Source of the DNA: Kofleriaceae bacterium
Lineage (GTDB): Bacteria > Myxococcota_A > Polyangia > Haliangiales > Haliangiaceae
Reading direction: 5' to 3'
Assembly (NCBI GenBank): GCA_965215005.1
Contig: CBDCCZ010000004.1
Location: 128,001-192,000 of the forward strand
Length of the DNA: 64,000 nt
Notes under the pieces: model-generated
The model's input: the letters and a program-made list of their open reading frames with translations, nothing else
The model's database searches: none
Told to the model about the DNA's origin: nothing
Shown: in pieces, positions 622 through 55,665 of the stretch
Layout: every line of letters begins with the position of its first letter
How positions within the stretch are numbered: position 1 is the first letter of the stretch
Made by a program: the position numbers and the translations under genes

Positions 622-1194
622 CTACGGCAGACGCCGACGCATTAGCAGGGCAGTGTGGGGCTCGTAGCCAAGACTTTCGTAGAAACCGATGACCTCTTGG
701 CGGCTATCTAAGAACACCGCGACCAGGCCCCGAGCACCGGCGTCGCGCTCGCAAAACTGCAGCAGCGCGACGCCCACGCCTTGGCCGCGGCAGCGCGCAT
801 CGACGACCAGATCATCGACATGCAGGTGGGGACCACGCGCGAGCGTGTGCACCGGCCGGATGCCCGCAACGGCGACTAGTACGCCGTCGCGGGATTGATG
901 ACGCAGAAATCCGCCACCCCGATGCGGGGCAAGGGCGGCATATTTCTGCTGCTCAGGCGCCCCCTTCGACGTCTCCCCAAGCGATTGTTGTGTTTCTAGC
1001 GGTTCACGACTTCCGCCGTGAACCACTAGCGAGCCGTTGCGAAACGCGCCGATGAGCTCATAGCCGCTCGCGCGCTGCATTTCGATTCGACGGACGAGCT
1101 CGGCTTCGTCGAGGTGCGAGCGTAGCTGCAAGAGAATGGGGGCGGCAGCGCGCACCTCATCGGCGCCGAGTCGGCGAATCTCGAGCTCGTTCAT
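622..1194 (-). CDS. GNAT family N-acetyltransferase with a 50-aa in-frame repeat insertion
   Basis: Motif A HVDDLVVDARCRGQGVG and C-terminal FYESLGY. Removing 150 nt between the two CTAGs restores GAFRNGSLV-AVAGIRP. Confidence 0.9.
   Translation of the reverse strand: MNELEIRRLGADEVRAAAPILLQLRSHLDEAELVRRIEMQRASGYELIGAFRNGSLVVHGGSREPLETQQSLGETSKGAPEQQKYAALAPHRGGGFLRHQSRDGVLVAVAGIRPVHTLARGPHLHVDDLVVDARCRGQGVGVALLQFCERDAGARGLVAVFLDSRQEVIGFYESLGYEPHTALLMRRRLP
876..1029 (-). repeat. Structured ~150-nt dispersed repeat, copy A (CTAG-flanked, inside the GNAT gene)
   Basis: CTAG at 876-879 and 1026-1029, 150 nt apart; closely matches 22769-22916. Confidence 0.9.
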
Positions 1195-1446: not shown

Positions 1447-1947
1447 CTATTGAACGACAAACTCGGCGAAGTAGACGCGCTTGACCTTCTCGCCTTGCAG
1501 CACTTCATTTAGTCGAGCGACGATGTCGCCTTGTATCTTGAGCTTGGCTTGCTCGCCCATGGTATCGACGACCGTTAAGTCGGAGAAGTAGCGCAGGAGA
1601 TTGTCACGCACCTCTCGGCTATCTTGGGTGAGCTCGGCTAGCGCGGCATCGTCGGAGAGCTGAACTTCGACGGTCGCCTTGAGAAACCGGCCGCCGCTGG
1701 CCTCGTTGAGGTTGACGATGTACGGATCCATGGTGTGAACCGGCCCCGGAACCTCCACTGCCGCCTTGTCTTCGGCTGCGGCGGCGGTCTCGGCTGCAGG
1801 TGCCGGTGGCGGCGCTGTCATCACCTTCGCCGCGACCGCGCCGCTCGCGCCCAGGTTGAGCACGAGCAGCAGCAAGAGCAGCTTCGGCGTCTTGATCTTC
1901 ACCGCCGGTGGTTCGGGCGACTCGACTTTTTCATTCTCGTCTGCCAT
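1447..1947 (-). CDS. fliL: Flagellar basal body-associated protein FliL
   Basis: N-terminal TM helix, then YIVNLNEASGGRFLKATVEV...VRDNLL...KRVYFAEFVVQ, the FliL signature. Start set at ATG 1947. Confidence 0.9.
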   Translation of the reverse strand: MADENEKVESPEPPAVKIKTPKLLLLLLVLNLGASGAVAAKVMTAPPPAPAAETAAAAEDKAAVEVPGPVHTMDPYIVNLNEASGGRFLKATVEVQLSDDAALAELTQDSREVRDNLLRYFSDLTVVDTMGEQAKLKIQGDIVARLNEVLQGEKVKRVYFAEFVVQ

Positions 1948-1966
1948 GGCGTCGCTGCTTCCTAGG

Positions 1967-1982
1967 AGCAAACGCCTTGCCA
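1967..1982 (-). promoter_or_regulatory. Putative sigma54 (-24/-12) promoter of fliL
   Basis: Minus strand TGGCAAGGCGTTTGCT (GG-N10-GC), about 20 nt upstream of the ATG. Confidence 0.6.
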
Positions 1983-2122: not shown

Positions 2123-5207
<3,085 letters not shown>

Positions 5208-5372
5208 GAGCGAGCGACTCCAATGGAAGGAGACGAGAGATTTGACTGCCACTTCTAGCACAGCCGCTCGGGCCATGCTCGCCGCGAGGTATTCCGGTCC
5301 CGCGCGCGCTATCGGGCAATTTCGTGAACGGTTACGGCGTGATGAGCTCGGCGGAAGGGCAGTGTCGCAGCG

Positions 5373-22460: not shown

Positions 22461-22772
22461 ATGCGAGCATTGACATTCATTTTGGCGGGGCTGCTCGCCT
22501 CGGCCACCGCGGCTGGTTGCAAGGATCGAGACGTCGAACACGAAGGCGCACTCGAGAACAATCTCGAACAAGCCGGCACTGACATCGGTCAGGGTGCCGA
22601 AGCAGCCGGACAAGAGCTGCAGCACGATACGCGCGAAGCGGCCCAGGATATCGAGCAAGCGGCAAAAGCGGCTGGCGCGGAAATCAATCAAGAGGCCAAC
22701 GAAATGGGACGCGAGCTCGACCATGCAGGCGACCACGCAGAGGCTGAGTTGGACGAGGAAATGGCCGACTAG
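22461..22772 (+). CDS. Small acidic helical lipoprotein
   Basis: AAGGAG RBS, AAGC lipobox, and ~11-residue amphipathic repeats. Confidence 0.8.
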   Translation: MRALTFILAGLLASATAAGCKDRDVEHEGALENNLEQAGTDIGQGAEAAGQELQHDTREAAQDIEQAAKAAGAEINQEANEMGRELDHAGDHAEAELDEEMAD

Positions 22773-22992
22773 TACGCCGCCGCGGGGCTCGTGACGCAGA
22801 AACCCCCGATGCGGGGCAAGGGCGGCAGATTACTGCTGCTCAGGTGCCCCGTTCGGCGTCTCCCCAAGCAATTGTTGTTTTTCGAGCGGTTCACGACTTC
22901 CGCCGTGAACCGCTCGTACGCCGCCGCGGGGCTCGTGACGCAGAAACCCGCCGCCCCGATGCGGAGCACGGGCGGCAGATCTCTGCTACTCG
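22769..22992 (-). repeat. Same repeat family: copy B (22769-22916, 144-nt unit) plus partial tandem copy C (22913-22992)
   Basis: Closely matches 876-1029; begins at the CTAG that forms the lipoprotein stop codon. Confidence 0.9.
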
Positions 22993-23089
22993 CGCGCCAT
23001 TGTCGCGTTGCTAGCGGGTTGCCGACTTACGCTGGAATCCACTCGCTCGTGACCCTGGCGCGGCTGCTGTAACACCCGCAATGTTTTAT

Positions 23090-26052: not shown

Positions 26053-26090
26053 CTCATCGTCATTCTCGGCGGTGAGAATCCGATGCGAGA

Positions 26091-26132
26091 CCTGAGCGGA
26101 AATTCACCGCCCTTGCCTCGCATCGTAGCGGC
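26091..26132 (+). repeat. Fragment of the same repeat family
   Basis: CCTGAGC..GAAAT..CCGCCCTTGCCTCGCATCG matches the repeat core CCTGAGCAGCAGAAATATGCCGCCCTTGCCCCGCATCG. Confidence 0.6.
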
Positions 26133-26146
26133 CTAAGGATCACGAC

Positions 26147-55506: not shown

Positions 55507-55665
55507 CCCCGTCTCGATTCCGGCGAAAGGCGCGATGAAAAGCGCAACAATCGCTGGGCGAGAGGCCCGAGTGGCCCGTTGAGCAGCGCGGGATGGCCAT
55601 CCTAGGGGCATCGGGATGGCCGCCCTCTCGTCACCACTCCTGCGGCGTGCGAGTGGTTCACGGCG
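55503..55665 (+). repeat. Diverged copy D of the repeat family (147-nt unit) plus the start of a further unit
   Basis: CAACAATCGCT, TGAGCAGC, GCATCGGGATGGC and CGTCACCACTCCTGCG are collinear with the reverse complement of copy A; followed by CGAGTGGTTCACGGCG. Confidence 0.75.

Follow-up and report, generated by a model that had tools for sequence, protein, structure and literature searches.

The host gene and its insert

The window, as we call the whole 64,000-nucleotide stretch of DNA analysed here, belongs to a 6.2 Mb genome of 65% G+C (G000) and carries on its minus strand a 190-residue open reading frame encoding a GNAT acetyltransferase (PF00583, E 2e-14; Table 1). Inside this frame two CTAG tetranucleotides start at 876 and 1026, exactly 150 nt apart as the first-pass annotation had stated, with a third, internal CTAG at 996, and the target in the GNAT frame is Leu-Val, at the start of strand beta3. 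The same annotation had counted 50 extra codons in the gene and had expected their excision to restore an ordinary GNAT strand. Both statements hold, as the protein exceeds its homologues by exactly 50 residues at the beta2-beta3 turn, where the flanking sequences NGSLV and AVAGIRP join precisely into the turn of the family.

The homologue search scored 8,000 candidates and found 125 proteins; among the best 120 of these 125, which were examined for length, all measured 111-160 aa except the query, one protein of 173 aa and one of 258 aa, in accordance with the expectation of orthologues of about 140 aa, and the 50-residue segment occurred in none of the 26 homologues aligned. The beta2-beta3 site appears to tolerate insertions, since in one homologue (P0042) this turn is longer by about 15 residues. 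A search of PDB sequences with the protein matched four GNAT chains. AlphaFold, run with the homologue alignment as input, returned a confident core (pLDDT of at least 90 at 132 of 190 residues) and values below 50 only at residues 63-93, a low-confidence loop that places the insert structurally; the core fold is thus predicted to be kept, with the insert disordered and looping out from the beta2-beta3 hairpin.

The GNAT copy of the repeat shows five differences from the closest genomic copy. One of them, at 885-887 (codon 48 of the insert on the minus strand), makes the insert end in R-D-G-V-L-V, which resembles the native R-D-G-A-L-V turn of several GNAT homologues, a likeness that may be due to chance. 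In this genome of a Myxococcota family the GNAT gene is adjoined by a gene for FliL, a flagellar component (1447-1971, minus strand). Further on, secA (2123-5276, minus strand) is split into two overlapping open reading frames by a frameshift near 3144-3208, the SecA_SW domain being found on both; the Logan contigs of sequencing run X1 are interrupted at 3154 and reveal no indel there, a CTAG lies at 3144-3147, and the frameshift may be either an assembly error or real.

Table 1. Position of the repeat, its parts and its host gene in the window (numbered from the first nucleotide of the window).
Feature	Position	Strand	Remarks
GNAT acetyltransferase open reading frame	622-1194	-	Residues 58-107 derive from the insert; motif A and family-invariant residues intact
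Left CTAG junction	876-879		TA at 877-878, one copy of the putative target duplication
Element proper, 148 nt, G...C	879-1026	+	With one TA, adds 150 nt, i.e., 50 codons
Left end resembling IS630 terminal inverted repeats	879-905	+	Measured on the near-consensus C3 copy, 16/27 against each resident IS630 end
Central hairpin	903-949	-	Covaries from the G000 to the G016 family; minus-strand G-U pairs
Terminal hairpin between two CTAGs	996-1029	-	Minus-strand GNRA loop at 1011-1014; most conserved part between genera
Right CTAG junction	1026-1029		TA at 1027-1028, second copy of the putative duplication
Second copy	22769-22916	+	144-nt period; 12 substitutions and a 6-nt deletion relative to 876-1029; on the TAG stop of an open reading frame ending at 22772
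Degenerate tandem unit	22913-23043	+	Junction in common with the second copy

A family of dispersed repeats

In G000, blastn retrieved 119 matches to the unit (E ≤ 1e-3) and nhmmer 164, 81 of which reach both ends of the profile. The insert is therefore not a product of chance, given these 119 blastn matches and its folding energy relative to 200 dinucleotide shuffles (z -2.9 on the plus strand and -3.5 on the minus strand). The proposal of a non-autonomous repeated element that contributes a peptide and leaves the frame intact was supported by this genome-wide family and by four further genes hosting the element in frame. Anchoring was attempted on the 57 nhmmer matches scoring at least 90 and holding both ends; three were skipped and 54 anchored, yielding 54 units at 50 loci, 137-168 nt long, with a period of exactly 150 nt in 28 and of 149 nt in 10. 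Part of the units form head-to-tail arrays in which neighbours have one CTAG in common. The element is short, multicopy, dispersed and without a transposase gene, as a MITE (miniature inverted-repeat transposable element) is. The stretch at 22769, which had been read as the same DNA in an intergenic position, turned out to be a shortened variant sitting on a stop codon (Table 1). Two weak nhmmer matches on the minus strand of the window, at 55517-55648 (30.9 bits) and 26072-26135 (25.1 bits), look like remnants of the repeat.

A homologous family occurs in the genome of a relative (G016), where the units are mostly 149 nt long and 11 hairpin sites were found; the two families are colinear and much diverged except for the terminal hairpin. 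An older subfamily of G000 (C60:96086-96237, C60:39598-39749 and C61:88165-88257) has a central hairpin nearer to that of G016 than to the main family of its own genome. The element was present in 2 of 61 and in 2 of 147 genomes of the two sets searched, a further single match among 401 genomes of the phylum being rejected as chance, and a scan of genome contigs matched only G016 (5 loci). Metagenome contigs gave no match to a 29-nt pattern; the 39 matches to a 20-nt pattern were rejected on inspection, as they were without the flanking element. No published description of this repeat family was found in a literature search that covered subscription journals incompletely and excluded supplements.

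Junctions and landing sites

With tandem and mis-anchored rows excluded, 40 rows were left for comparison, giving 33 left junctions and 31 right ones. The outer bases of the junction tetranucleotides differed from CTAG in 14 of 64 cases and the inner bases in 2 of 64, and C>T/G>A transitions were found nine times at outer positions and once at inner ones (p = 0.02). Since the outer bases vary and the inner ones hardly do, the duplicated target is most likely TA, and the same asymmetry disfavours a 4- or 5-bp duplication. The direct repeat that had been described as (A)CTAG stands as far as CTAG is concerned, while the 5-bp form ACTAG is coincidental. From the junction sequences the most likely geometry would be Y-TA-[G...C]-TA-R, an element 148 nt long that duplicates TA, and a geometry with no duplication would fit equally, since variants at the left and right TA positions rarely match. 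At the protein level the comparison with empty sites gave exact 50-residue gaps (GNAT homologues and a kinase paralogue); at the DNA level no empty allele was seen.

Site classes were assigned with a hexamer gene caller (5,119 genes, 87% coverage) after removing each unit in silico. The 50 loci comprised 17 host stop codons, 22 intergenic sites, seven sites in CTA (Leu) phase, three mis-anchored sites and one out-of-phase site near a gene end, against a background of 6,730 genomic CTAGs that are for the most part in CTA phase (3,662) and otherwise intergenic (1,649), out of phase (957) or at stop codons (462). Stop codons were favoured 2.8-fold over intergenic CTAGs (p 0.003), whereas in-frame sites were 10-fold depleted relative to intergenic ones (Fisher test, odds ratio 0.10, p 9e-8, with the locus of a TonB-dependent receptor, called intergenic yet in frame, counted on both sides). 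The permissive CTA phase makes up 54% of the genomic CTAGs, yet in-frame landing accounts for only 5 of the 50 loci. CTAG is reportedly a preferred target of IS630, and the earlier remark that it is the target of some IS families holds as regards insertion at CTAG and can be narrowed to a mobiliser that is most likely of the IS630 family, with duplication of TA.

In-frame hosts and probable retention of the insert

Full copies lie in frame in five unrelated genes, encoding the GNAT, a kinase-AAA protein, a HAD protein, a CheA-like protein and the TonB-dependent receptor. Four of the seven CTA-phase loci hold up (GNAT, kinase-AAA, CheA-like and HAD); the other three were dropped, one lying in a 41-codon open reading frame, one 4 codons from the gene end and one 15 codons from the called start. 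The receptor adds a fifth, because its 837-codon open frame spans the element and the locus was called intergenic only as the gene caller had chosen a later start. The insert appears as a clean 50-residue gap between the kinase-AAA protein and its neighbouring paralogue and as a 48-residue gap between the HAD protein and five orthologues, while the in-frame status of the CheA-like protein and of the receptor is drawn from the open frame and the Pfam domains. Catalytic motifs are kept in the kinase, CheA and HAD. Two further open reading frames (G000:C42:207215-208591 and C4:221210-222178, both on the plus strand) hold truncated copies in frame; one copy is read on the opposite element strand in a 458-codon frame devoid of Pfam matches, and the other lies near the N-terminus of a DUF3575 protein.

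Neutral decay was simulated for stop codons only, leaving out indels because the assembly may hold indel errors. The joint chance that all five genes had stayed free of stops ranged from 0.014, with near-private changes taken as age, to 1e-5, with the distance to the nearest copy taken as age; an open frame had been required in the search that yielded these genes, and copy divergence serves as a rough clock only. For GNAT alone the same test was not significant (P 0.6-0.7). Relative to its nearest copy the HAD copy differs at 20 positions, and its left CTAG is gone; in the kinase copy both junctions are changed; since both copies nevertheless keep 150 nt and the frame, routine precise removal is argued against. 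Excision of the insert at the DNA or RNA level thus appears disfavoured by the sequences, and the best reading of them is that of an element similar to the Rickettsia palindromic ones, probably retained in the proteins. The capacity to be read in frame looks accidental, because the frame on that strand was open in 41% of 3,000 shuffles (both strands in 14%) and because the G016 family is mostly 149 nt long, which is no multiple of three; an open frame maintained by selection was rejected on the basis of the same shuffles.

We judge it very unlikely that the copy in the GNAT gene either entered recently and is mildly damaging or results from mis-assembly of the repeat, with the gene becoming a pseudogene. 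Such a reading would agree with the shortfall of in-frame insertions, over 90% of those that CTAG frequency predicts being missing, with the outcome of the GNAT-only retention test and with other frameshifts in the assembly (secA and the IS630 copies). The Logan contigs of run X1, which may be the source sample of the assembly itself, bear on it in both directions: none among them spans the whole insert, and no empty-allele joint was among those listed, but they match 400-927 and 1002-1600 with zero differences, including the private bases of the GNAT copy, and cover both junctions with 52 and 28 letters inside the element, the 28 letters on the right being below the 31-letter bridging rule. 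Further points against it are the intact GNAT motifs and modelled fold and the four other genes that show the same pattern.

A strand-specific fold

The consensus folds with -55.8 kcal/mol on the minus strand versus -36.1 on the plus strand, as G-U pairs on the former correspond to A-C on the latter. Across 29 sequences 95.5% of the cells pair, as compared to 42-47% in slid controls, and two-sided changes are found in 13 of the 31 pairs, a count reached by 33 of 500 shuffles; relatedness among the sequences inflates these pairing and covariation figures, and the covariation comes for the most part from two families plus a few subfamilies. Within G000 the terminal hairpin also covaries. Among 78 copies its loop is of the GNRA type in 58, and of the 42 variant loops 22, in seven distinct forms, are still GNRA, as compared to 4 of the 12 possible single changes that would preserve it. 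An intrinsic terminator was considered and rejected on inspection, as the T run lies before the hairpin.

These features raise the question of whether the element could act or spread through a minus-strand RNA, i.e., a small structured RNA or a processing signal whose ends derive from IS630, in which case coding copies might be removed from the transcript by processing. We regard this as quite unlikely. The pairing specific to one strand and the persistence of GNRA loops would fit, as would the finding that the five full in-frame copies all read the same peptide and the same element strand, the minus one (orientation p 0.06). On the other hand, a search of 700-1200 against Rfam gave no family match, only a 15-nt chance match below cut-off; no reverse transcriptase was found in G000, and the single one of G016 does not have the element nearby; the altered junctions of the HAD and kinase copies, with the frame kept, speak against processing; and in 11 of the 17 stop-codon copies the element is transcribed on the other strand and not on the minus one. 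Quasi-palindrome correction, moreover, can mimic covariation, which here has the narrow base mentioned above.

Likeness to IS630 and search for a mobiliser

A resident IS630 of 1,523 bp (PF13358) occurs at three loci of G000 (C14:184019-185541, C6:55892-58311 and C21:67490-69013) in near-identical copies, of which those on C6 and C21 carry single-base frameshifts and that on C6 has a partial tandem copy; left-end fragments lie on C40, C18 and C4. This IS is flanked by CTAG, forms a tandem with one common CTAG, and at two of the three loci (C6 and C21) lies inside the right CTAG of the element. The match of its two ends to the left end of the element (Table 1) is a level reached by 7 and 2 of 13,297 null sites, while the right end is matched at 8-10/27 only. 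On a profile built from 28 IS630 ends at 14 loci of other genomes of the family, the left end of the element ranks in the top 0.05% and the right end in the top 0.08% of 13,328 other CTAG sites, with scores of 4.2 and 3.2 versus 15.9 and 26.1 for the resident IS630, well below held-out true IS ends; the terminal hairpin, read inward, also scores as similar to an IS630 end, and eight element ends of G016 fall in the top 0.2-4.5%. The two ends of the element are alike at 13/27 positions in G000 and at 15/27 in a G016 copy; the level of 15/27 is reached by 17 of 13,297 null sites. C-TAG opens each of the 16 IS630 loci whose ends could be detected, in a search that was anchored on TAG. IS630-family elements duplicate TA, according to an excerpt of PMC2170065. 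On these sequence grounds the assignment to an IS630-family MITE is likely, with no cognate element found: an autonomous element with these exact ends was not detected, the best match among the IS630 ends of relatives being 16/27, and two queries returned no IS630 in G016.

Searches for IS701 DDE_5, IS110 Transposase_20 and DDE_Tnp_1 found none in G000 or G016, with positive controls. Beside an IS630 fragment, the region G000:C19:54300-56500 contains an open reading frame with upstream direct repeats and a second one, which we take to be replication-initiator-like and ParA-like, respectively; the region presumably derives from a plasmid.

The enzyme could instead be of the HUH type (REP/RAYT-, IS200/605- or IS91-like) and move a single-stranded element, with the terminal hairpin as the recognised end, a cut between the first two bases of the tetranucleotide, no true duplication, and right-end units of variable length as one-ended products. 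The terminal hairpin is indeed the part most conserved across genera, as well as covarying within G000, and Y1 genes are present in both genomes (five in G000 and eight in G016). Six shortened units of 54 nt and three hairpin-only units keep the right end alone and might, by analogy, be products of one-ended transposition such as those of IS801 (excerpt of PMC3189936). Their left junctions nevertheless vary from unit to unit and gather around the foot of the large stem-loop, a pattern that suits deletion. The element bounds none of the 13 Y1 loci, one of which lies about 430 nt from a copy, and a search of G000 for Y2 (PF04986) gave no match, with the positive controls equally silent. Both ends of the element resemble those of IS630, and canonical REPs carry GTAG, as excerpted in PMC8266576, in place of CTAG. 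All in all we hold a HUH-driven origin to be unlikely. The five Y1 genes of G000 (L001-L005; contigs C25, C3, C17, C4 and C46) are related to each other, encode about 220 aa with a basic N-terminal extension, and apparently form a separate mobile family without obvious ends.

Relation to known repeats and proposed mechanism

RUP, Correia and ERIC are MITEs flanked by TA. With IS630-family insertion sequences and MITEs (IS630, ISY100) the present element has in common the TA junctions in CTAG, the IS630-like end motifs, a stable fold and the lack of a transposase gene; it departs from IS630 MITEs in that its ends are alike at 13/27 only, its right end is itself a covarying hairpin and the cognate autonomous element was not found. 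The likeness to Rickettsia palindromic elements (RPEs) that had been pointed out initially is real as judged from excerpted descriptions (PMC10969869; PMC3184786): both are about 150 nt long, hairpin-forming and dispersed, and both place the same peptide in frame in several intact, unrelated genes, with the insert, for the GNAT model only, predicted in a surface loop of a preserved fold. Nearly half of the RPEs are in frame according to excerpts of a review (PMC10969869; PMC3184786), as compared to 5 of 50 loci for this element, which is further set apart by its free-living Myxococcota host, a defined TA/CTAG target, IS630-like ends and many stop-codon sites. Given this host, membership of a Rickettsia RPE family is unlikely, the likeness having been judged from published descriptions.

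At about 155 bp, bcr1 from the Bacillus cereus group is similar in size, and its RNA-level structure is likewise kept by compensatory changes, a finding thus already published; according to an excerpt of PMC3184786, bcr1 has 5-bp direct repeats and has been shown to be transcribed, whereas the present element has a TA/CTAG junction. REP/TnpA-REP systems and IS91-family derivatives resemble it in the terminal hairpin next to a tetranucleotide, the right-end-only forms, the tandems and the occasional in-frame insertion (excerpts of PMC6006769, PMC8266576 and PMC3189936), and the REP/TnpA-REP systems differ from it in the GTAG instead of CTAG foot and in the HUH gene flanked by the unit, of which there is none in G000 or G016.

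Taken together, we consider it probable that the GNAT gene carries a copy of a non-coding MITE of 148 nt, flanked by TA within CTAG, present in dozens and likely moved in trans by an IS630-family enzyme, and that this insert, instead of being removed, is translated as a disordered 50-residue loop that the protein tolerates. Starting from the genome-wide family with its TA/CTAG junctions and tandem arrays having one common CTAG, an IS630-family DDE transposase would recognise the two imperfect ends and cut and paste the element into YTAR, duplicating TA. As 148 + 2 nt make 150 and the frame is open in CTA phase, landing on a Leu codon followed by G would keep the frame, and landing on a C-TAG stop would keep the stop. 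Selection would then purge most coding insertions and leave those in loops or linkers, as in the GNAT, where the fold is predicted to be unchanged and the insert to loop out of the beta2-beta3 hairpin.

The model of an enzyme binding the ends of double-stranded DNA leaves the fold unexplained, with its strand specificity, its covarying pairs and its GNRA loops, as it does not require them. A combined scenario, possible though doubtful, would place IS630-derived ends around an RNA-like fold specific to one strand on which the spread depends, the element moving through, or being steered by, a structured single strand, while the CTAG target permits landing on stop and Leu codons without killing genes. 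If true, it would provide an identifiable mobiliser for a peptide-donating repeat of the RPE type and would make the spread of coding palindromes testable in E. coli.

In-frame insertion itself has already been published for RPE, BRE, BOX and REP. The present family offers a natural case, from a free-living bacterium, in which five unrelated folds receive the same 50-residue peptide from a mobile repeat, together with quantifiable target rules (stop codons about 2.8-fold favoured, in-frame sites depleted about 10-fold) and a candidate family of transposases, and small constructs could test which enzyme spreads RPE-like elements and how protein folds tolerate such loops.
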